Of a DNA stretch of 52,012 bases, positions 20,862 through 33,403 are shown in pieces. The translations under genes and the position numbers were made by a program. This DNA comes from an uncultured Bacteroidota bacterium (GTDB lineage: Bacteria; Bacteroidota; Bacteroidia; Chitinophagales; UBA8649). Location of the stretch: the NCBI GenBank assembly GCA_937139485.1, contig CAKZQD010000137.1, positions 1-52,012 on the forward strand. Reading direction: 5' to 3'. The notes beneath the pieces were generated by a model. The model worked only from the letters and a program-made list of their open reading frames with translations. It was not told the origin of the DNA and ran no database searches. Numbering within the stretch: position 1 is the stretch's first letter; each line of letters begins with the position of its first letter.

Positions 20862-21899
20862 TTATGCTGGTTTATATTTACTTTTATTCATTATAGTTTC
20901 TGCAGGTGTTTTTAAAAGTTGTTCTAAAGTAACAGAACCACCAGCGTTTTTCATATAAGCATTAACTATTTGCCAACCAACCCAAGAGCCTACATTTCCA
21001 GGAGCTTCTTTAGGCATTCCAGCTGTTCTTGGTCCATCATCTATGTGTTTTTTGTGTTCTATGTAGCTTTTGCTATAAAACAAATCTTTTTCGTTATAAA
21101 AAGCCCAAATATCACTTTCAGAAGCATTGCACCAAGCAAGTTGTTCTGGAGAATAACCTATAAGAAAATGTTTTTCCTTTTCGGGCAGCATAGATTCTAA
21201 AAAATAAAGTTTTTTTCCTTTCTCTATCATTTCATACACCAAAGCACTTGTTTCTTCTAGTTCATTTCTACCAAAATGTTGTAGATATAAAACCTCCATA
21301 GCGTTTGGAGCAATATATTGTGGCGCAAAACGAGCTATTTTATAAGAAGGAAAATCTATACTTCTATAAATACTAAAGTCTTTGCCCATAAACATATCTA
21401 AAGCTAAAACCAATGTTGCTGAATCAAAAGTAACAGCATTATAACCAAATTCAGAAACAACAGAATATACTTTTGGAATTGCTAAGTTTGGAAAATAATG
21501 TTCAAAATATTTCATTGCCTCCGTTAGCTCTTGTTCAATAGACTTTATGTTTTCAAACTTTATACTTACGCTATCGTGTAGGTTTCTTACATCTTTATTG
21601 GTCAAAAATTCACGAATATACTTTGTAGTAACAGAAGGCGTGTCTGTAATTCTTCCAAAACGCATCATTTGAATAGTGTAAGAATCAAAAAATAAAGAAT
21701 CTTCACTTCTCAAAGATTTAAGCGAAGAAATTATATTATTTGTATCTATTGTTTCAAACTTTTTTTCAAACCTATTAAGTTTAATCTCTAAATTAGAACT
21801 ACTTAGGTCTAATATTTTATTATTTTTGTAAAAGTCGCATTGAGCTAGCAAAAACAATAAAAACAACAATGCAATAAAATGATGATATTTTTGATTCAT
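20862..21899 (-). CDS. gldB: Gliding-motility lipoprotein GldB-like
   Basis: 345 aa. Lipobox LLAQC. Carries the N-terminal RFEKKF motif and the C-terminal PGNVGSWVGWQIVNAYMKN as I recall them from GldB. nadE lies nearby, as in other flavobacteria. Confidence 0.6.
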   Translation of the reverse strand: MNQKYHHFIALLFLLFLLAQCDFYKNNKILDLSSSNLEIKLNRFEKKFETIDTNNIISSLKSLRSEDSLFFDSYTIQMMRFGRITDTPSVTTKYIREFLTNKDVRNLHDSVSIKFENIKSIEQELTEAMKYFEHYFPNLAIPKVYSVVSEFGYNAVTFDSATLVLALDMFMGKDFSIYRSIDFPSYKIARFAPQYIAPNAMEVLYLQHFGRNELEETSALVYEMIEKGKKLYFLESMLPEKEKHFLIGYSPEQLAWCNASESDIWAFYNEKDLFYSKSYIEHKKHIDDGPRTAGMPKEAPGNVGSWVGWQIVNAYMKNAGGSVTLEQLLKTPAETIMNKSKYKPA

Positions 21900-21953
21900 A
21901 ATTTAAAAATTTATAAAGCGAATTAGCTTACACAACTACAAAACTAATAACAA

Positions 21954-22676
21954 ATGAAAAAAATTGCATCAATACTTACAATTTTACTTTTTTTAACCAA
22001 TGCAAATGCACAAGAGTTAAGAAATTTTAGGTTTGGTTTAGTGTTTTCAAACGCTATTATGTTTCCAGCTTCAGACAATGTAGATCTTAAAAGTAAGCCT
22101 TCTTATGGATTTGATTATGGTTTAAGTATAGACTATTTTTTTACCGATAATTATGCAATTAGTTCTGGAATATATATGGATCACCCCATTTATGCAAGAA
22201 GCGGAACATTAGAAAACAATTTTTCTTTTAGCGCAGCATCAGATTCTGCTTTTGCATTGGCAAAAGGTATAAATAGTTCTACTATAGGCAATAACGAAAA
22301 AATTACCTCTATGAATTTAAATGTTCCAGTTTCGTTTAAGCTTAAAACAAACGAAATTGGTTATTTTAAATATTTTGGAGATGTAGGAATATTAAATTCA
22401 TTTAGAATACAAAGCAGATATTCTCTAAAAGGAACAGATATTCAAAAAATTAGGTTTGGAAAAGAAAATGCAGAATTTAATGCAATAAATTATCATACAA
22501 AAACCTACAATTTTAGTTTAAAAATAGGTGGCGGCATAGAATGGACAATAAGCGATAACACAGCACTTTTAGTAGGACTTTATTTTTACAACGGCTTTAT
22601 AGATTATATAGAAGACAATGATGCAAAAGCTACTTATATAAGAAAACTAAGTTTAAGAACAGGAATATTGTTTTAA
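21954..22676 (+). CDS. Outer-membrane beta-barrel (porin-family) protein
   Basis: 240 aa. Signal peptide ...LTNANAQE, alternating strands and a terminal ...RTGILF. Confidence 0.6.
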   Translation: MKKIASILTILLFLTNANAQELRNFRFGLVFSNAIMFPASDNVDLKSKPSYGFDYGLSIDYFFTDNYAISSGIYMDHPIYARSGTLENNFSFSAASDSAFALAKGINSSTIGNNEKITSMNLNVPVSFKLKTNEIGYFKYFGDVGILNSFRIQSRYSLKGTDIQKIRFGKENAEFNAINYHTKTYNFSLKIGGGIEWTISDNTALLVGLYFYNGFIDYIEDNDAKATYIRKLSLRTGILF

Positions 22677-22794
22677 AATCTGCTTAGTCATTTCTGCGTT
22701 TGTTATAATTTCTCAAGCATAAAAAAAACCTAAACTTTTTTATAAAATAGCGCAGCATCTGTTTTACAATTAATTATATAAAGCTTTTAGAAAT

Positions 22795-24429
22795 ATGAAA
22801 ATAGCATTAGCACAACTAAACCTACACATAGGTAATTTCGATTATAATTTCAATAAGATAAAAGAAGCCGTTTTAGATGCAAAAAAAGCTGGTGCAGAAC
22901 TTATTTTGTTTCCAGAATTAACAACTTGCGCATATCCACCAAGAGATTTTTTGGAATTTTCTGACTTTATAAATAGATCTAACCAAGTTATAGAAAAAAC
23001 CAAGCAACTTGCCGATGGAATAGCAATAGTTATAGGTGCGCCATCAGAAAACCCTGTTGTAGAAGGAAAAGATTTATTCAATTCTGCATATTTTTTGGCA
23101 GAAAAAAAAGTGCTTCAAGTTATACACAAAACGCTGCTACCAACTTACGATGTTTTTGATGAATACAGATATTTTGAACCAAATAATGAATTTAACCTAG
23201 TAAACTGGAATGGTTACAAAATAGCTGTAACGGTTTGTGAAGATATTTGGAATTTGAATAACGAAAATCCTTTGTACAAAATAAATCCAATGGACGAGTT
23301 GGCAAAGCAAAAACCAGATTTTATTCTGAATCTTTCTGCATCGCCGTTTCATTCTAAGCAAGCAGATGCACGTAAAAACATAGTAAGAGAAAATGCCAAA
23401 ACTTTTGGAATACCATTGTTTTATGCAAACCACTGTGGCGCACAAACAGAACTAATTTTTGATGGCGGTTCGCTAGTTGCAAACAGCAAAGGAGAAATAG
23501 TTTCTGAATTGCCATACTTTTTAGAATGTATAGAAATTATAGATTTTAAAGAAGTAGAAAGTTTAGTACCAATAGAGCAAAAAACTATAGAAATAGAAAG
23601 AATACACGATGCCTTAGTAGTTGGAATTAAAGATTATTTCAATAAACTAGGTTTTAAAAAAGCAATTCTTGGCTTATCTGGTGGAATAGATTCTGCGCTA
23701 GTTTTAGCTTTGGCTGTAAAAGCATTAGGGAAAGACAATGTACTTTCTGTAATGTTGCCATCGCAATATTCTTCAGATCACTCTATAAATGATTCGCTGG
23801 AATTGGTAGATAATTTGGGTTCGCCATATAAAAAAATAAGTATAGAAGACGCATATTTTGCAGTAGAAAATACTTTGCAAGCACACTTTGAAAACAAAAA
23901 ACCAAACGTAGCAGAAGAAAATATACAAGCAAGGCTGCGTGCAGTAATTTTGATGGGTTTATCTAATAAAGACGGCTATATATTATTAAATACTTCAAAC
24001 AAAAGTGAAGCCGCAGTTGGTTATGGAACACTTTACGGCGATATGGCAGGCGGAATTTCTGTAATAGGAGATTTATACAAAATACAAGTAGTAGAACTGT
24101 GTAAATATATAAATAGAAACGAAGAAATTATTCCTACAAACATTATTACAAAACCACCAAGCGCAGAGCTTCGACCAGACCAAAAAGATTCAGATTCGCT
24201 GCCGCCTTATGAAATACTAGACGAAGTATTATTTCAATACATAGAACAGCGCAAAGGACCAAAAGAAATAATAGCAATGGGTTTTGACGAAGCCTTAGTA
24301 AAGCGAATTTTACTAATGGTAAACCGAAACGAATGGAAACGCCACCAAACAGCACCAGTTTTGAGAGTTTCTGCCAAAGCATTTGGAATGGGAAGAAGAA
24401 TGCCTATAGTTGGGAAGTATTTGGAATAG
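22795..24429 (+). CDS. nadE: Glutamine-dependent NAD+ synthetase
   Basis: 544 aa. N-terminal nitrilase/CN-hydrolase domain (FPELTTCAYPPRD, VCEDIW) and a C-terminal synthetase domain with the SGGIDS PP-loop. Confidence 0.9.
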   Translation: MKIALAQLNLHIGNFDYNFNKIKEAVLDAKKAGAELILFPELTTCAYPPRDFLEFSDFINRSNQVIEKTKQLADGIAIVIGAPSENPVVEGKDLFNSAYFLAEKKVLQVIHKTLLPTYDVFDEYRYFEPNNEFNLVNWNGYKIAVTVCEDIWNLNNENPLYKINPMDELAKQKPDFILNLSASPFHSKQADARKNIVRENAKTFGIPLFYANHCGAQTELIFDGGSLVANSKGEIVSELPYFLECIEIIDFKEVESLVPIEQKTIEIERIHDALVVGIKDYFNKLGFKKAILGLSGGIDSALVLALAVKALGKDNVLSVMLPSQYSSDHSINDSLELVDNLGSPYKKISIEDAYFAVENTLQAHFENKKPNVAEENIQARLRAVILMGLSNKDGYILLNTSNKSEAAVGYGTLYGDMAGGISVIGDLYKIQVVELCKYINRNEEIIPTNIITKPPSAELRPDQKDSDSLPPYEILDEVLFQYIEQRKGPKEIIAMGFDEALVKRILLMVNRNEWKRHQTAPVLRVSAKAFGMGRRMPIVGKYLE

Positions 24430-24502
24430 GTTTTTGATAGTTTGCTTATATTATTTGTGTTTATTAGATAGGTAATTTTTCCATAGGCTGTATTTTTTGT
24501 TG

Positions 24503-24510
24503 TACATTTG
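24503..24510 (+). promoter_or_regulatory. Candidate -7 box for the ATPase/RloB operon
   Basis: TACATTTG lies 21 nt upstream of the ATG at 24532. Confidence 0.35.
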
Positions 24511-24531
24511 CAATAAACTAAATAATTAGAT

Positions 24532-25839
24532 ATGATTATTGACTTTTCGGTTAAAAATTTTAGATCTTTAAAAGAAGAAAATCTATTTACTATGCGTGCT
24601 GATTCAAGTACTAGTAAATCTGACAATACTTTTATAGTAAAATTAAAAGATGATAAAGAGATAAAACTTCTTAAAACTTCTGTTGTATATGGTGCTAATG
24701 CAAGTGGTAAGAGTAATTTCATAAAAAGTTTGTATGCTTTAAAGTGGCTTATAACAAATTCTATGGATTTTAAAGTTGGAGAAGATATTGATTGCTATGA
24801 GCCATTTGAATTAGATGTAAACACTAAAAATGATTCTGTTTTATATTCTATAACTTTTATATTAAACAAGGTTAAGTATAACTACGAAGTAGCTGTTAAA
24901 GAAAATTGTATAGAAAGCGAAATATTAGATTATTATCCTAAAGGTTCATCAGCTAATTTATTTAAAAGGTTTGGTAATAATAATAACAAAGAAGATTTTG
25001 TAGAAGTTAGTTTAGGAAAAAACTTAATTGATAAGAGGATTTCAAAAAAAGTATTTGATAATCAATTGTACCTGTCAAAATTTGGATCGGATACACCACA
25101 TGAACAACTTACAGAAATCTATAAATACTTTAAAGATTTTGAGGTTTGGAATGCTTTAAATTCAAGAGATGTAAATAAATTAAGTAAGGATATATCTAAA
25201 AAAATAGCAAATCCTATTAATAATAAATTTAACAATAGGTTGAGCAAGTTAATTAGGATTGCTGATACAAAAATAGAAAAATTAAATGCTAAAGAATTAA
25301 AAAAAAATGACTTTAATCTTCCTGAGGAAATTCCTGATGATATAAAAAATAGATTTTTTGAAGATAACAAATTAAGAACTTTTGCTATTCATAAGTTGTA
25401 TAATAATAAAAAAGAAGTTGATTTTGTTGAGTTTGATTTAAATAAAAAAGAATCAAAAGGTACAAAAGTTCTATTTGCTCTAGGTGGAATAATTTTAGAA
25501 GCACTAGAAAATGGAGGCATTGTAGTTTTTGATGAGTTAGATAATAGTTTACACCCAAAGCTCTGTAAATTTTTGATAAGGTTATTTAATAATTCAATTA
25601 GTAACCCTAATAATGCACAATTAATCTTTGCTACACACGAAGTTACGCTATTAGATAAAGATGTTTTTAGAAAAGATCAGATTTGGTTTACTGAGAAAGA
25701 TAAATATGGAGAAACAGAACTTTTTTCTGCTAGAGATGTTGAAGGACTGAGAGATAGTACAAATTTTGAATTATGGTATAGAACAGGAAAATTTGGTGGA
25801 AACCCAAAGATTAAGGAAGTTGAATTTATTTTTGAATAA
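24532..25839 (+). CDS. AAA_21/ABC-type ATPase (AbiLi-like, OLD-ATPase-like)
   Basis: 435 aa. Starts MIIDFSVKNFRSLKE. Walker A GANASGKSN, Walker B IVVFDELDNSLHP, then FATHE, with tail DQIWFTEKD...WYRTGKFGGNP. Confidence 0.8.
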   Translation: MIIDFSVKNFRSLKEENLFTMRADSSTSKSDNTFIVKLKDDKEIKLLKTSVVYGANASGKSNFIKSLYALKWLITNSMDFKVGEDIDCYEPFELDVNTKNDSVLYSITFILNKVKYNYEVAVKENCIESEILDYYPKGSSANLFKRFGNNNNKEDFVEVSLGKNLIDKRISKKVFDNQLYLSKFGSDTPHEQLTEIYKYFKDFEVWNALNSRDVNKLSKDISKKIANPINNKFNNRLSKLIRIADTKIEKLNAKELKKNDFNLPEEIPDDIKNRFFEDNKLRTFAIHKLYNNKKEVDFVEFDLNKKESKGTKVLFALGGIILEALENGGIVVFDELDNSLHPKLCKFLIRLFNNSISNPNNAQLIFATHEVTLLDKDVFRKDQIWFTEKDKYGETELFSARDVEGLRDSTNFELWYRTGKFGGNPKIKEVEFIFE

Positions 25840-26750
25840 TGAAAAAAAGAAGAAAAAGAGTTCCTCCTAAAACAATTTTCATAGCTTGTGAAGGTAAGAA
25901 TACTGAGCCTATTTATTTTGAAAGAATTAAAGAGCAGATAGAAGATGATAATATTTTCGCTTTAACAATTTATCCTGATAGAGATAATGATAGTCATAAA
26001 TCAGACCCAATTGGTTTAATTAAAGAAGCACAAAAAAGAATAAATTATTTTGATGAAGTTTGGGTAGTGTATGATAAGGACGGTTATACTAAGCACAAAG
26101 AAGCTTTAGCTCTTGCTCAAAATGAAATTTGTGATAAAGTCGTAAATATAGCTTTTTCAAGTATTTCTTTTGAGCATTGGGTTTTATTGCATTTTGAAAA
26201 AAATGCAGAGTCGTTTAATAAATCACAAGAAATAATAGATCAAAAATTTATTACGAATGAAAACTATTTTCCTTCATATTCCAAAAGAGGTGATATAGAT
26301 ATATATCCAAAAATTAAAGATTTAACAAATACAGCTTTAGAGAATACAGCTTGGTTGCGTTATATCAAAAAAGCAGATATTAATTCAAATCCAATTTTTG
26401 ATGTTAATCCATTTACTGATGTTGATGTTTTGGTGAAAAAATTATTTAATATTGATGAAAACATAAGTTATTACTTAATAGGGGATATTATGTCTTTTGA
26501 TGATGTAAATATCAAAGCAACTTATGTTAATGGAGAGCTTAATTTTGAAATTAATAATGCCTCATTGAATGCAATCGTATTGAATGAAATTCAATTTTCA
26601 GTTGTTGAAAATGATTTAGAAAAGTCACTTATCTTTGATAATCAAGTGTTAATGCCAAATATATCAATTCATGTTGAAGTGGTTGAATCAGATTTTTCAA
26701 AAGTCGTTATAAGGTTTAGAAATAATAGATTTGTCGTAGTTCTGGAGTAA
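25839..26750 (+). CDS. RloB-like (Toprim-related, AbiLii-like) protein with a C-terminal extension
   Basis: 303 aa. Motifs IFIACEGKNTEPIYF, VWVVYDKDG and FSSISFEHWVLLHF as in the RloB family. Its start overlaps the ATPase stop (TAATG). Residues from about 195 to 303 are unassigned. Confidence 0.75.
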   Translation: MKKRRKRVPPKTIFIACEGKNTEPIYFERIKEQIEDDNIFALTIYPDRDNDSHKSDPIGLIKEAQKRINYFDEVWVVYDKDGYTKHKEALALAQNEICDKVVNIAFSSISFEHWVLLHFEKNAESFNKSQEIIDQKFITNENYFPSYSKRGDIDIYPKIKDLTNTALENTAWLRYIKKADINSNPIFDVNPFTDVDVLVKKLFNIDENISYYLIGDIMSFDDVNIKATYVNGELNFEINNASLNAIVLNEIQFSVVENDLEKSLIFDNQVLMPNISIHVEVVESDFSKVVIRFRNNRFVVVLE

Positions 26751-26986
26751 TTAATATCATCTATAATGTAAACAGCGACTCAGTATGTTTTATATTGTGT
26801 AATAAAAAACATTTAAATGTCAACTCAATCTGCTTAGCTAAAAAAATTCTACACTTCCTTTGCTTTAGCCTATTTTAGGTTACTGTCTAGATTTAAGCAT
26901 AAACAAAACCCGATAAACGTGATTTTTGTAATTGTAACGTATTTAAAAAAGAATTTATTTTCTTATATAATTTATTCAATAACACT

Positions 26987-27027
26987 GCTTTTCATTTCTA
27001 TTATTTAAAAAATGAAAAGTTTTATTT
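26987..27027. terminator. Hairpin between the convergent RloB and EEP genes, a possible terminator
   Basis: CTTTTCATTT-(12 nt)-AAATGAAAAG followed by TTTTATTT on the plus strand. The stem is AT-rich. Confidence 0.3.
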
Positions 27028-28535: not shown

Positions 28536-29168
28536 TTGTCACAAAATACGTTTATGAATATTGCTTTTTCTTGGACATTATTGCTTTTACCTTTTATAGC
28601 TGCCACTATTGGTTGGTTTACCAACTTTATAGCAGTAAAAATGCTTTTTCACCCAAAAGAACCAATAAATTTTTTAGGATTTAAAATTCACGGTATTTTT
28701 CCTAAAAGACAAAAAGACATAGCCGTAAGCGTAGGAAAAATGGTAGCAAATGATTTATTAAACGTAGAAGATCTTCAAGATAAACTGGCTAATAAAGAAA
28801 GTGTATTGGCTATAATAGATAAAATAGAAAATACTTTAGATCATTATTTTGAAGTTAGTTTTCCATTAAAATTTCCTTTACTTTCTAAGGTAATATCTAC
28901 TAAAATGCGCATAAAAATAAAAAACGAAATGCTTGGCGAAGTAGAACATATTGCTCCAGAACTCATTGCAAACCAAGTAAATAACCTAGATCAAGTTTTT
29001 GATGTAGAAAAAATAGTGACAGAAAAAGTAAGCAATCTTTCGTCAGACAAATTAGAAGAACTCATGCTTAATATTATAGAAAACGAACTAACTTTTATAG
29101 AATGGGTTGGTGCCGTGCTTGGTTTCCTTATTGGACTGGTTCAAGTAGGATTAGTTTTAGTTCTTTAA
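28536..29168 (+). CDS. DUF445-like membrane protein
   Basis: 210 aa. IGWFTNFIAVKMLFHPKEP is typical of DUF445. It uses a TTG start at 28536, with an alternative ATG at 28554. Confidence 0.55.
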   Translation: MSQNTFMNIAFSWTLLLLPFIAATIGWFTNFIAVKMLFHPKEPINFLGFKIHGIFPKRQKDIAVSVGKMVANDLLNVEDLQDKLANKESVLAIIDKIENTLDHYFEVSFPLKFPLLSKVISTKMRIKIKNEMLGEVEHIAPELIANQVNNLDQVFDVEKIVTEKVSNLSSDKLEELMLNIIENELTFIEWVGAVLGFLIGLVQVGLVLVL

Positions 29169-29831
29169 AACAACTCTCAAGGCTTCTCTTTTACTCAAAT
29201 TACTCAATGCTGTTTTTTCACAATAGCCAATGACCCAACTAGGATTTATATAAGCGTATTCTCTCAACACCCAACCAATAGCTTTATTAATAAAAAATTC
29301 TTTAGAGCCAATAAAATGATTAATTACATAAGAAAGGTATTCTGTATCAAGATCTTTTTTGTATTTTAATTGAAATAGAATACAAGAACGGTTTAGCCAC
29401 AAATTATCAGTGTTTAACCATTTTTCTATGACTGTATTTCTTTTTTTAGGAAAAAGCCTGAAATAATGACCTACTAAATTTGGTGCAATAGAATCAATGC
29501 TGGCCCACCAAGATTTTTGTTTAATTAAGAATTCAAAAAGTTCAATATCTTTTTCTTCTATTTGTTTTTTATATTTTAAAGCAAGTTCCAAAGCAAAATA
29601 TTGAAATTCTCTTTGTGGTTTTTGCCATAAATATTTAATAATTTTTTCTAAATCTTCTTTTGCAGGTAAAGCGTCTTTAACTAAAAATGGTCTTGTTATC
29701 AATTTTCTGGTAGGAGAATTAATACCATAAAATGCAAAGTTATTTTTCATATACTTTGCTTGTTTTGCGGCATTTTCAGTATTAGCGTTTTCTAAAAAAA
29801 CGGCTTCAAGTGTATTTATATAATCATTCAT
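29157..29831 (-). CDS. DNA alkylation repair protein (AlkD-like HEAT-repeat glycosylase family)
   Basis: 224 aa. AKQAKYMKNNFAFYGINSPTRK ... INKAIGWVLREY is the family pattern. Confidence 0.7.
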   Translation of the reverse strand: MNDYINTLEAVFLENANTENAAKQAKYMKNNFAFYGINSPTRKLITRPFLVKDALPAKEDLEKIIKYLWQKPQREFQYFALELALKYKKQIEEKDIELFEFLIKQKSWWASIDSIAPNLVGHYFRLFPKKRNTVIEKWLNTDNLWLNRSCILFQLKYKKDLDTEYLSYVINHFIGSKEFFINKAIGWVLREYAYINPSWVIGYCEKTALSNLSKREALRVVLKN

Positions 29832-30583
29832 ATTTCAAAAATCAACTCTTTATAACAATACTCGTCCGAAACTTTTTTTACGTTTCCTAAATAATTTTTT
29901 CCAGAAAGCTTTTGTACTGTGTGAGCTGTTAGGTGTGCTTCATTATTTATTTGTTTTAAAACAGAAATATTTTCAGCGTTTAAACTTTTTTCTTTAAGCC
30001 AAAATTCACTTTCATACTCATTTAATATTAAAGGTGTTCTCGCCTCTTTCAGTTTTGGATTGTTGTGCAATTTTGCCATCAAATCTTTAGCTTTATTAGT
30101 TACAATACAAAAAGTATTTATATTTTGATTGGTTTTTTCATCAAACCATTCACTTCTTAAAGCTGCTAAAATCATTGGTTTTTTATCTTTTCGATAAACA
30201 AAAAAAGGATAAGACTTTCCTTTAAAATGGTGAAATTCATAAAAGCCATCAACATAAACAACACATCTTTTTTCAAGGGCAGACTCTTTAAAAGATGGCT
30301 TTTTTAAAATTGTTTCCAAACGCGCATTGAGTGTTTTTTGCCAAATAGAAGCAATGTTTTTTCGGCTTTTTACAAAACTTGGAATCAAACCCCAGTAACA
30401 AGCTATAACTTTTGAGGAAGTATACACCAAAACCATTGGATGTGTAAATGCAGATAAATGAAAACTAGGTTGTGTGATTAAGGTTTTTAGCTTTTTGGTT
30501 AATTCTAAAACTGATTTATTATCGCCGTCTTGCTTTGCGTGAAATAATTGTGTTTCTAAACTTGATTTTACGCTGTAGCACAC
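29828..30583 (-). CDS. SOS-response-associated peptidase (SRAP/YedK-like abasic-site processing protein)
   Basis: 251 aa, beginning Met-Cys (MCYSV). SRAP-like core. 4-nt overlap with the AlkD-like gene. Confidence 0.7.
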   Translation of the reverse strand: MCYSVKSSLETQLFHAKQDGDNKSVLELTKKLKTLITQPSFHLSAFTHPMVLVYTSSKVIACYWGLIPSFVKSRKNIASIWQKTLNARLETILKKPSFKESALEKRCVVYVDGFYEFHHFKGKSYPFFVYRKDKKPMILAALRSEWFDEKTNQNINTFCIVTNKAKDLMAKLHNNPKLKEARTPLILNEYESEFWLKEKSLNAENISVLKQINNEAHLTAHTVQKLSGKNYLGNVKKVSDEYCYKELIFEI

Positions 30584-31957: not shown

Positions 31958-33403
31958 TTATTTGTTAGAAGACTGTCTTTCTTCTATAGAACAAGGATAG
32001 TCAAACAAACATTTCCTTTTTATCATTTCAGCTACATATTCGGGTACATTTTCTTCCCAGCCATCTTCTCTTCCTCTTATTTTTTCTATTATTTCATAAG
32101 AAAAAATTTGTAGATGGTCTTCATTGAAGTTTTCAATGTCTTCTATATAGTTGTTTGCTAAAAAATGCTTGTGCAAGTTTTCTAACTCTGGTGTTGTTTT
32201 TAAAGTTTTGGCGGTTATAATTTCACCATCTTTTTCTCTTTGGTATGGGTAAGCATAAAGTTTTACATCGTAAGAAAACAACTCACCAAACGATTTTAAT
32301 ACTTGTTGCGAAAGGTCTTTTTCGCCATCTAAACCATATATAAATATAAGGTTCATAATACCTATTGGCATTCTTATTTTTTTAACTCTACACCTATCTA
32401 AGTATACTGCCAAGTCTGCATGGTCATGAAGGTTAGAAACCATTACGTAAGAACCCAAACCGCACAATATTTCTGCTCTGTCTAAGAAATCTCTTCTACT
32501 CAGGTTTTCATCTTCATAAAGCGAACTTAAATTCATTTCGCTCATTACCACTAGTTTTTCAGGGTCTGCACCTTCTTCTAGTGTAAATTTTTCTAAGCCA
32601 TTTTTTAAAATATCTTGGTTTACTATAGTAAAAGGTCTAAACCTGCCTCTTACCAAAAGCACATCTTTTTTGTACAAAAAATCTTTTGGTTGGTAAACTT
32701 CATTATCTGGGCCAAAAATAGTTGCATCGGTAAAGCCTAACTTTACTAAAAGTAAACTTAGTAGTCTATTGTCTACTTCTTTATGGTCTGGACCTTCAAA
32801 TTTAACCATATCTACTTCTAAATGGTTAGTACTTATATAGTCTTTTAATGAACGAACAATAGTTTCTGGGTCGTTTGGATATGTGTATGCACCAAAAATT
32901 AAGTTTACACCCAATTCTCCAATTACTCTTTGTTGAAGCAAAGCATTGTTGTCATAAATTCTTACGTGAAGAATTATTTCGTTTGGTTCTGCATCTTCTT
33001 CTAGCTGGTACCTTACGCCTATCCAACCGTGTGGCTCGTTGGTTCTTGAATAATTTAAAGTAGTTATTGTATTTGCAAAGGCAAAAAGTCTTCTTCCTTC
33101 GTATTTGTTTCCTTTAAGTCTTTCTTTTAGTAAAGTAAATTCATGGTCTAACATTTTTTTTACTCTACTTTGGCTTACATACCTATTGTTTGCTTCTGCT
33201 CCATAAATGGCATCACTAAATGCCATGTCATAAGCAGACATTGCTTTTGCAATAGTTCCTGAAGCACCACCTACTCTAAAAAAATTTCTTGCTACTTCTT
33301 GTCCTGCGCCTATTTCTGCAATAGTTCCATATATACTTGGATCTAAATTTAATTTAAGTGCTTTTGCCTTAGTAGACAGTACATTTCTTTTATTGGTAGC
33401 CAT
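31958..33403 (-). CDS. Conserved cytoplasmic protein of unknown function
   Basis: 481 aa with no signal peptide. The conserved-looking N-terminus is YGTIAEIGAGQEVARNFFRVGGASGTIAKAMSAYDMAFSDAIYG. It is tightly packed between the E2 gene and kmo. Confidence 0.6.
   Translation of the reverse strand: MATNKRNVLSTKAKALKLNLDPSIYGTIAEIGAGQEVARNFFRVGGASGTIAKAMSAYDMAFSDAIYGAEANNRYVSQSRVKKMLDHEFTLLKERLKGNKYEGRRLFAFANTITTLNYSRTNEPHGWIGVRYQLEEDAEPNEIILHVRIYDNNALLQQRVIGELGVNLIFGAYTYPNDPETIVRSLKDYISTNHLEVDMVKFEGPDHKEVDNRLLSLLLVKLGFTDATIFGPDNEVYQPKDFLYKKDVLLVRGRFRPFTIVNQDILKNGLEKFTLEEGADPEKLVVMSEMNLSSLYEDENLSRRDFLDRAEILCGLGSYVMVSNLHDHADLAVYLDRCRVKKIRMPIGIMNLIFIYGLDGEKDLSQQVLKSFGELFSYDVKLYAYPYQREKDGEIITAKTLKTTPELENLHKHFLANNYIEDIENFNEDHLQIFSYEIIEKIRGREDGWEENVPEYVAEMIKRKCLFDYPCSIEERQSSNK

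Follow-up and report, generated by a model that had tools for sequence, protein, structure and literature searches.

AbiL of Lactococcus confers abortive infection (PMC13064643; PMC11464382) and has been grouped with PARIS, OLD, Gabija and MADS as a split ATP-binding cassette (ABC)-ATPase/TOPRIM system (PMC11464382; PMC13064643; PMC12409363; 10.64898/2026.07.10.737580). The L. lactis system was originally defined by phage resistance, according to the account of Deng 1999 given in PMC13064643, and such a phenotype is known for the lactococcal AbiL alone (PMC13064643). The AbiLii protein of Fusobacterium nucleatum is toxic in Escherichia coli (PMC3985639), and AAA antitoxin/TOPRIM_OLD toxin combinations are validated toxin-antitoxin (TA) pairs (PMC10440598). 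The PARIS effector AriB is a tRNase (PMC11464382; PMC12409363), and a 2026 preprint assigns the same activity to P2 Old (10.64898/2026.07.10.737580). Here we describe an AbiL gene pair on a 52,012-nucleotide (nt) stretch of DNA (the window; contig CAKZQD010000137.1, assembly GCA_937139485.1) from an uncultured marine Bacteroidota bacterium of the Chitinophagales. The second protein of the pair carries a C-terminal immunoglobulin (Ig)-like domain that is clade-wide, unannotated and not previously described, and the pair occupies a cassette with sharp borders.

The two genes and the domains of the second protein are as follows.
24532..25839, + strand: abiLi, 435 amino acids (aa), ABC-type (AAA_21/AAA_15) ATPase, presumed sensor and keeper of the nuclease
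25839..26750, + strand: abiLii, 303 aa, RloB family, presumed Toprim-like nuclease effector
25837..25841, + strand: TAATG stop/start overlap (stop TAA 25837-25839, ATG 25839-25841), predicted translational coupling
25875..26444, + strand: predicted RloB/Toprim-like catalytic core of AbiLii, residues 13-202, full RloB profile (1-195/195)
26445..26747, + strand: Ig-like beta-sandwich domain of AbiLii, residues 203-303, outside the RloB profile and specific to a Bacteroidota clade

A first-pass annotation made from the sequence alone had proposed an AbiL-like module in which an ATPase is joined to an RloB/Toprim-like partner. Its two open reading frames (ORFs), their overlap and the motifs it quoted were all found in place, and the family call agrees with both Pfam and PADLOC profiles. 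AbiLi contains a Walker A motif (GANASGKSN, aa 54-62, nt 24691-24717), a signature-like ESKGTK (nt 25450-25467), a Walker B motif (IVVFDELD, aa 330-337, nt 25519-25542) and an H-loop (FATHE, aa 366-370, nt 25627-25641). AbiLii contains ACEGKNTEPIYF (aa 16-27), VVYDKDG (aa 76-82) and FEHWVLLHF (aa 111-119). In Pfam, AbiLi matched AAA_21 (2.9e-33, 116.7 bits against a cut-off of 27) and AbiLii matched RloB (PF13707; 2.1e-31, 110.1 bits against a cut-off of 31.5). The PADLOC AbiLi model covered residues 1-432 of the first protein (1.2e-82), and the AbiLii model (5e-21) was the sole PADLOC model matched by the second. No NCBIfam family exceeded its cut-off for either protein, and AbiLii had no match to AriB or DUF4435, its Pfam match being to RloB alone. 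A PADLOC "AriA" match (PDLC02980) that would have pointed to PARIS was set aside; its length and coordinates are identical to those of the generic AAA_21 match, and it is thus no evidence for PARIS. By its profile matches the locus is AbiL, a known kind of split ABC-ATPase/Toprim system.

Both genes recur together elsewhere. On the contigs that hold both, a gene for a 434-438-aa ATPase overlaps one for a 295-304-aa RloB protein, and the overlap was present at every homologous locus with both genes: Pseudofulvibacter geojedonensis (L161; JBHTJM010000007), Seonamhaeicola maritimus (L164; VRKQ01000020), Elizabethkingia (L165), L166 and L170. The ratio of nonsynonymous to synonymous substitution rates (dN/dS) of AbiLi against its homologues was 0.06-0.08, and values of 0.06-0.16 for the ATPase and the RloB core together show that both are under purifying selection.

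The Toprim arrangement places a Glu after the first strand and the Asp of a DxD motif after the third. In the AlphaFold2 model of AbiLii (predicted local distance difference test (pLDDT) 93.6, predicted template modelling score (pTM) 0.89), the core alternates between beta strands and alpha helices; E18 comes immediately after the first strand (residues 11-17), and D79, the first Asp of DxD, closes the third (73-79). The modelled core thus has the Toprim arrangement. Invariant positions among 81 homologues were C17, E18, G19, E23, E73, D79 and H86, together with S107, S108, E112, W114, H118, Y147 and K149. Direct comparisons gave no confirmation of the Toprim link: no OLD, GajA or AriB chain was within the top 50 Foldseek matches of the whole AbiLii model, a search of PDB with the 81-sequence alignment gave nothing under E 0.16, and hhalign with the RloB alignment detected no sequence-profile link to P2 Old. 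Glycoside hydrolases, which combine an alpha/beta domain with a sandwich, were the top whole-model Foldseek matches in PDB and were rejected as spurious composites because the root-mean-square deviation was 12-19 Å.

The C-terminal third of AbiLii lies outside this core. The first-pass annotation had placed residues from about 195 to 303 beyond the RloB core, had described them as beta-rich and had raised the possibility that they are a sensing or specificity domain that defines an undescribed subtype. The first two points stand, with a slightly later boundary: the RloB profile is fully matched by residues 13-202, so that the C-terminal region is not a standard part of it, and residues 203-303 form nine predicted beta strands in an all-beta model (pLDDT 92.9 when modelled alone). 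As to the third, no Pfam family covers the domain, but it is not peculiar to this locus, and a sensing or specificity role would be a hypothesis that goes beyond what was observed, an Ig-like fold and faster evolution under purifying selection. In Pfam, all 47 domain sequences stayed below every gathering score; the hints beneath those thresholds were Ig-like throughout, the best being MOV-10_Ig-like (1.5e-4) and HYDIN_VesB Ig (8e-3). Foldseek returned only generic Ig/fibronectin type III-like sandwiches (E at least 5e-3, template modelling scores 0.4-0.6, probabilities 0.99-1.0), among them SoxY, YjhA, FlaG/FlaF, DUF1573-like proteins, a DUF1425 protein and Ig-like accessory domains of glycoside hydrolases.

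The distribution of the domain follows that of long RloB proteins in Bacteroidota. A profile of the domain retrieved 45 proteins from 1.84 billion representatives. All seven Pfam-scanned matches of 219-374 aa were RloB proteins with the domain at the C-terminus, and a few giant matches were tandem ASH/DUF1573/CARDB/PKD Ig-repeat proteins. The 120 best RloB homologues had a median length of 300 aa and came from Flavobacteriia, Chitinophagia, Cytophagia and Saprospiria; 56 of them were detected with the domain of the window alone as query. Judged from these sequences, nearly all RloB proteins of about 300 aa in Bacteroidota appear to carry the Ig-like domain, which is the norm for a large clade. 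Plasmid RloB matches align only to query residues of about 2-205 and lack the domain. Among viral proteins, the top structural match (E 1.1e-7) was to a phage RloB-like protein of 213 aa and covers the core only, and a scan of IMG/VR for the long form gave one distant, core-only match.

Two further occurrences of the family were noted. A long-form RloB protein (P0062; 298 aa, 49% identical) lies on a 1.6-kb contig of a metagenome-assembled genome labelled by NCBI as 'Candidatus Babeliaceae' (Dependentiae), reflecting either transfer beyond Bacteroidota or a binning error. The short form, an ATPase with a 205-aa RloB protein, was found on about 40 mobilisable ColE1-like plasmids of 3.5-5 kb from Escherichia, Klebsiella and Salmonella (e.g., NZ_CP070130, 3,681 bp; L168), where the pair is essentially the sole cargo besides rop, mobA and rep.

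The Ig-like domain is the fastest-evolving part of the AbiL system. Across the 81 aligned homologues, the domain is on average 22% identical to that of the window protein and the RloB core 59%, and amino acid identity to Pseudofulvibacter was 86% for the ATPase, 80% for the core and 46% for the domain. The dN/dS values against three homologues were as follows.
Against P0002: ATPase 0.077, RloB core 0.077, Ig-like domain 0.131
Against P0003: RloB core 0.137, Ig-like domain 0.257
Against P0004: ATPase 0.058, RloB core 0.157, Ig-like domain 0.380
The domain values (0.13-0.38) are about twice those of the core (0.08-0.16), yet clearly below 1. They fit relaxed constraint or a frequently changing interface and are by themselves no proof of positive selection. 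A single position in the domain, N240, is nearly invariant.

By analogy with other Ig-like folds, the domain may be a protein- or ligand-binding module that was added in the Bacteroidota branch. Its most likely role is in docking to AbiLi, in oligomerisation of the nuclease or in recognition of a substrate, trigger or inhibitor. A competing explanation is that the domain is purely structural, a scaffold or a means of oligomerisation that plays no part in specificity, its divergence reflecting weak constraint on the surface of the sandwich; we regard this as quite possible while leaning the other way. A domain dN/dS above that of the core and well under 1, the single nearly invariant residue, the generic structural matches and the fact that short-form RloB proteins of plasmids and phages function without the domain are all compatible with a scaffold. 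However, the domain has been kept clade-wide at constant length, and rapid evolution of one domain of an immune effector is what would be expected where host and phage meet. The pTM of the two-domain model also hints at, and does not prove, a fixed packing of the domain on the core.

We consider it probable that the pair is a two-gene AbiL-family anti-phage module, of an abortive-infection or TA-like type, that travels on a 2.26-kb, horizontally mobile, self-promoted cassette and whose ATPase holds the nuclease until a phage cue arrives. By analogy with PARIS and P2 Old, we infer that the translationally coupled AbiLi and AbiLii would form a complex in which an ATPase oligomer keeps the nuclease inactive. 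A phage-derived cue would alter AbiLi, and the released or activated AbiLii would cut host nucleic acid, most likely tRNA and possibly DNA. The resulting growth arrest would abort the infection. Observed here are the family membership, the integrity of the motifs, purifying selection, the predicted fold of the additional domain, the cassette borders and the accessory status, whereas the complex, its trigger, its target and the part played by the Ig-like domain are deduced.

Several observations weigh against this proposal. The mechanism of AbiL is not known even in Lactococcus (PMC13064643). In F. nucleatum, AbiLi did not neutralise AbiLii in trans (Dy et al. 2014, PMC3985639), so the keeper or antitoxin step may not be general. 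At D81 (window 26079-26081), the second position of the D-x-D motif, the window and 60 of the 81 long-form homologues have Asp and the other 21 have Asn, indicating either that this residue is dispensable in the family or that a subset has altered metal binding.

The same module could act on phage or host DNA rather than on tRNA. DNA nicking or cleavage in vitro is described for the Toprim domains of OLD and of GajA (PMC12409363), and the sequence of AbiLii does not discriminate RNA from DNA substrates. Set against this are the tRNase activities of AriB (PMC11464382, PMC12409363) and, per the preprint, of P2 Old (10.64898/2026.07.10.737580), as well as the lack of a helicase partner of the Gabija type, the flanking genes being nadE and an EEP gene. 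We judge a DNA target possible, though less likely than not.

The extent of the cassette on which the anti-phage module would move was defined by comparison with homologous loci.
24494..26753, + strand: mobile cassette core (promoter region and both genes), 2.26 kb, defined by nucleotide homology
24503..24510, + strand: putative Bacteroidota-type -7 promoter box TAnnTTTG (TACATTTG), 21 nt ahead of the abiLi ATG
24430..24493, no strand: left spacer, from the nadE stop to the cassette, no attC-like arm detected
26754..27025, no strand: right spacer, from the cassette to the EEP gene stop, non-coding
26987..27027, + strand: candidate terminator-like hairpin of 11 bp with a 12-nt loop, followed by UUUAUUU, present in the minimum free energy and centroid structures
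Homology to other AbiL loci begins at base 24494 both in L161 and in L170, two different contexts; its other end lies at 26753 in L170 and in L171 and, for L172, at 26766. Homology on the nadE side (L155) ends at 24434. These sharp borders, shared across contexts, delimit a cassette unit of 24494..26753 that includes the TAnnTTTG box. The GC content of the AbiL pair (0.23-0.29) is below that of the flanking genes (0.32-0.35).

The TAnnTTTG box that had been reported 21 nt upstream of the pair is present, but it is statistically unremarkable by itself in this AT-rich window (118 matches against 108 +/- 10 expected). The box is kept in homologous cassettes elsewhere, as TAAGTTTG in L170 and TATGTTTG in L161, with differences at the free positions only. 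The reading as a promoter box gains support from this conservation with a variable "nn", and the conserved box supports a promoter borne on the cassette. Scans for sigma-70 promoters and GC-rich terminators, which are unsuited to Bacteroidota, gave counts at chance. Behind the pair, the 275 nt of DNA that had been described as non-coding (26751..27025) indeed held no ORF of at least 31 aa, no Rfam match and no tRNA. The overall fold of the right spacer was no better than that of shuffled sequences (z = -0.21), and the spacer had no attC-like arm and no homology to L175, the closest relative found, past about 27024. Termination of the operon may fall to the hairpin and U-tract at 26987-27027, whose AT-richness explains why the consensus terminator scan did not pick it up. 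No insertion scars were detected in the window, which had no notable flanking direct or inverted repeats, tRNA or Rfam match, and no integrase was found among the larger window ORFs scanned. PADLOC matched none of ten other large window ORFs.

The pair had been read as a defence islet between a housekeeping gene and a convergent gene, and its neighbours elsewhere agree with an accessory status. In the window it is flanked by the glutamine-dependent NAD synthetase gene nadE (CN_hydrolase + NAD_synthase) and a convergent Exo_endo_phos (EEP) gene. Its neighbours differ in every other genome examined, being unrelated in Pseudofulvibacter, Seonamhaeicola, Elizabethkingia and three metagenome contigs, and the pair is neither syntenic nor universally conserved among the relatives compared. 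Genome and metagenome scans yielded 160 nadE loci, and neither the AbiL pair nor the EEP gene lay beside nadE in any of them. These loci are at most 64% identical, except for one 125-aa fragment at 86%, and are thus too distant for an empty-site comparison. The order gldB (GldB_lipo 2e-88), beta-barrel porin-like ORF and nadE (window 20862-24429) is widespread in Bacteroidota; among the first 80 nadE loci, a gldB-like gene was within the fetched flanks of 56 and a porin-like gene within those of 32. The left flank of the cassette thus belongs to the old backbone.

The comparison from the EEP side was informative. On contig SRR12549471_2561 (L175), the EEP protein is 89% identical to that of the window and the block of DUF445, 74-aa and EEP genes is 81.6% identical over 2,081 nt. 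Homology stops at window position of about 27024, the EEP stop codon, beyond which L175:2319-3940 holds complete AbiEi (PADLOC 1.8e-95) and AbiEii (2.1e-100) genes. Relatives at 68-72% identity have gltX, a uracil-DNA glycosylase gene or a glycosyltransferase gene in the EEP-adjacent slot, and the differing cargo beyond the EEP stop marks this site as a variable slot. Two sister lineages hold different Abi systems, AbiL and AbiE, in the same slot. No empty allele of the nadE-EEP junction was found; look-ups by exact nadE and EEP protein recovered the same population alone, with an unchanged arrangement.

In two cultured flavobacteria the cassette lies within arrays that resemble integrons. Eight consecutive intergenic regions of S. 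maritimus (L164:45-8893) contain an attC-like element of 60-240 nt, as do four of five intergenic regions of P. geojedonensis (L161:1-6051), and L171:1385-1755 contains one complete and one partial element. The 5' arm reads ...xxxxAAC-G..GTGTATGA..GTTGCG and the 3' arm GCAAT..TATACAC-GTTGTTxxxx. In a two-arm scan of 182 sequences (181 loci and the window), the elements occurred in these three only, in a single orientation. The element after the AbiL genes in L161 is predicted to form a long, imperfect single-stranded DNA hairpin (-22.8 kcal/mol, z = -4.9, none of 200 shuffles as stable); the corresponding element of L171 had z = -2.65. When the 11 nt after the terminal GTT are compared with the reverse complement of the opening boxes, they agree at 9-10 of 11 positions with the box of the following element and at just 3-8 with that of their own. 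Such cassette-specific R''/R' complementarity would arise because recombination at R' splits each attC between adjacent cassettes. Together, these sequence features suggest that in L164 and L161 the AbiL pair and its promoter make up one integron-like cassette.

A tyrosine recombinase gene (L164:9556-10686, - strand) lies 1.7 kb from the AbiL cassette of S. maritimus. It scored 203 bits on the TIGR02249 integron integrase model (cut-off 265) and 204 on a XerA/integron integrase model (cut-off 220), and these below-threshold scores are suggestive of an integron integrase. The gene is downstream of the array and oriented like most cassette genes, a non-canonical integron layout. In L170 a single attC-like site (L170:1-57) comes straight after the AbiL cassette (P0002). 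In L171 an extra cassette with a 75-aa ORF and identical GCCAAC/GTTGGC boxes lies between the AbiL cassette (P0002) and the attC-like site, and looks like a recent cassette insertion event. The window copy had no attC-like site in the two-arm regular-expression scan, and hidden Markov model profiles of the arms (nhmmer) found nothing significant at either spacer (best E 0.32). An impression by eye of decayed attC arms in the window spacers was unsupported by these profiles and was discarded. Some sedentary chromosomal integrons of Vibrio carry defence systems as cassettes, some of them self-promoted (Darracq et al. 2024, 10.1101/2024.07.02.601686), and IntegronFinder 2.0 detected almost no integrons in Bacteroidetes (10.1101/2022.02.28.482270).

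A bolder proposal unites the domain and the cassette: the long-form AbiLii of Bacteroidota would define a distinct AbiL subtype in which the fast-evolving Ig tail of the nuclease, and not the ATPase alone, sets recognition, of a phage protein that acts as trigger or inhibitor or of an RNA target, and which spreads among Flavobacteriia as a self-promoted cassette of an overlooked integron-type system. We offer this as speculation that is probably not correct in full.

The pair might also be mainly a TA addiction module that stabilises the DNA around it, for example cassette arrays, rather than a dedicated anti-phage system, although we consider this quite unlikely. Self-promoted TA cassettes are classical stabilisers of chromosomal integron arrays, and the pair is a self-promoted cassette within the integron-like arrays of L164 and L161. 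AAA/TOPRIM_OLD pairs act as TA systems (PMC10440598) and F. nucleatum AbiLii is toxic (PMC3985639). But the window has no array to stabilise, the slot of the sister lineage holds another Abi system, as expected of a defence hotspot, and phage resistance defined the AbiL of L. lactis in the account of Deng 1999 cited above. Moreover, TA behaviour and defence can coexist.

A housekeeping ATPase/Toprim pair for DNA repair or recombination, which would recall the SMC-like ABC-type ATPases and Toprim proteins that act in repair and the weak Pfam match of AbiLi to SMC_N (0.014), is highly improbable given the lack of synteny in relatives, the sharp cassette borders with unrelated neighbours elsewhere and best profile matches to defence models.

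Two further observations concern genes farther along the window. DNA_alkylation-repair (3e-58) and SRAP (1.8e-39) genes (window 29157-30583, - strand) lie where the roughly 70%-identical L176 and L177 have RecJ and DUF420, in a block that is otherwise conserved (DUF445 ... FAD_binding_3, 2-oxoacid dehydrogenase E2). A 481-aa ORF (window 31958-33403, - strand) had no Pfam family at E <= 1e-5 and is conserved in position; its 484-aa counterpart in L176 and L177, between the FAD_binding_3 and 2-oxoacid dehydrogenase genes, also had no Pfam matches.

PADLOC or DefenseFinder would already label the locus AbiL, and the locus itself is therefore no surprise. What is new is the clade-wide, unannotated Ig-like domain, the exact cassette borders with AbiL/AbiE turnover, and the integron-like context in flavobacteria. 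AbiL is an ABC-ATPase/Toprim defence family whose mechanism is still to be solved, and the long-form clade is a tractable entry point: it has hundreds of members, a self-promoted cassette of only 2.26 kb, a confident model and a list of invariant residues. The Ig-like domain provides a concrete hypothesis for the site of specificity in split OLD-like systems. AbiL here and AbiE in a sister lineage, both at one stop codon, make this site a clean case from nature of defence-slot turnover in a marine Bacteroidota genome. The integron-like arrays of the two cultured flavobacteria, if true, would mean that defence genes are also shuffled as cassettes in a phylum thought to be nearly integron-free.

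Among described systems, the defence cassettes of Vibrio resemble the AbiL cassettes of L164 and L161 in being array units bounded by attC-like sites with their own promoter. The arrays described here differ from Vibrio integrons in being found in Flavobacteriaceae and in having a nearby recombinase that scores under the integrase cut-off, and the window copy has no attC-like site. The short-form pair of the 3.7-kb E. coli plasmid NZ_CP070130 (ATPase and 205-aa RloB protein) and the 229-aa RloB protein of an E. faecium plasmid share the RloB core with the locus, and both stop at that core. The RloA/RloB proteins of Campylobacter type I restriction-modification loci likewise combine an RloB core with an ATPase, whereas no restriction-modification genes flank the AbiL pair, its neighbours being nadE and EEP.

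The OLD family (P2 Old, class 1; Gabija GajA, class 2) also joins an ABC ATPase to a Toprim nuclease, and its defence acts by abortive infection. OLD and GajA are, in contrast, single fused polypeptides where the locus has two separate ORFs, and Gabija includes a UvrD-like helicase, which the locus lacks. PARIS, with its AriA ABC ATPase and AriB DUF4435/Toprim tRNase, resembles the locus in separating a sensor ATPase from a Toprim-type effector, and PARIS and AbiL share one AAA15/21 tree (PMC11464382). PARIS is the best-understood mechanistic model, proceeding through sequestration, trigger binding, release and tRNA cleavage. The effector at the locus is, however, RloB and not DUF4435, and a review reports that AbiLii has no sequence similarity to AriB and superposes poorly on it (PMC13064643).

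The closest described system is AbiL of L. lactis. The lactococcal system is carried on a plasmid, whereas the locus is chromosomal in a marine Bacteroidota bacterium. Judged by profiles, the locus differs from AbiL in the Ig-like domain of about 100 aa, which lies beyond the reach both of the 195-position RloB profile and of the AbiLii model in PADLOC (170 positions). Both systems consist of an overlapping pair in which an AAA_21/AAA_15 ABC-type ATPase gene is followed by an RloB-family gene, and both PADLOC models match.

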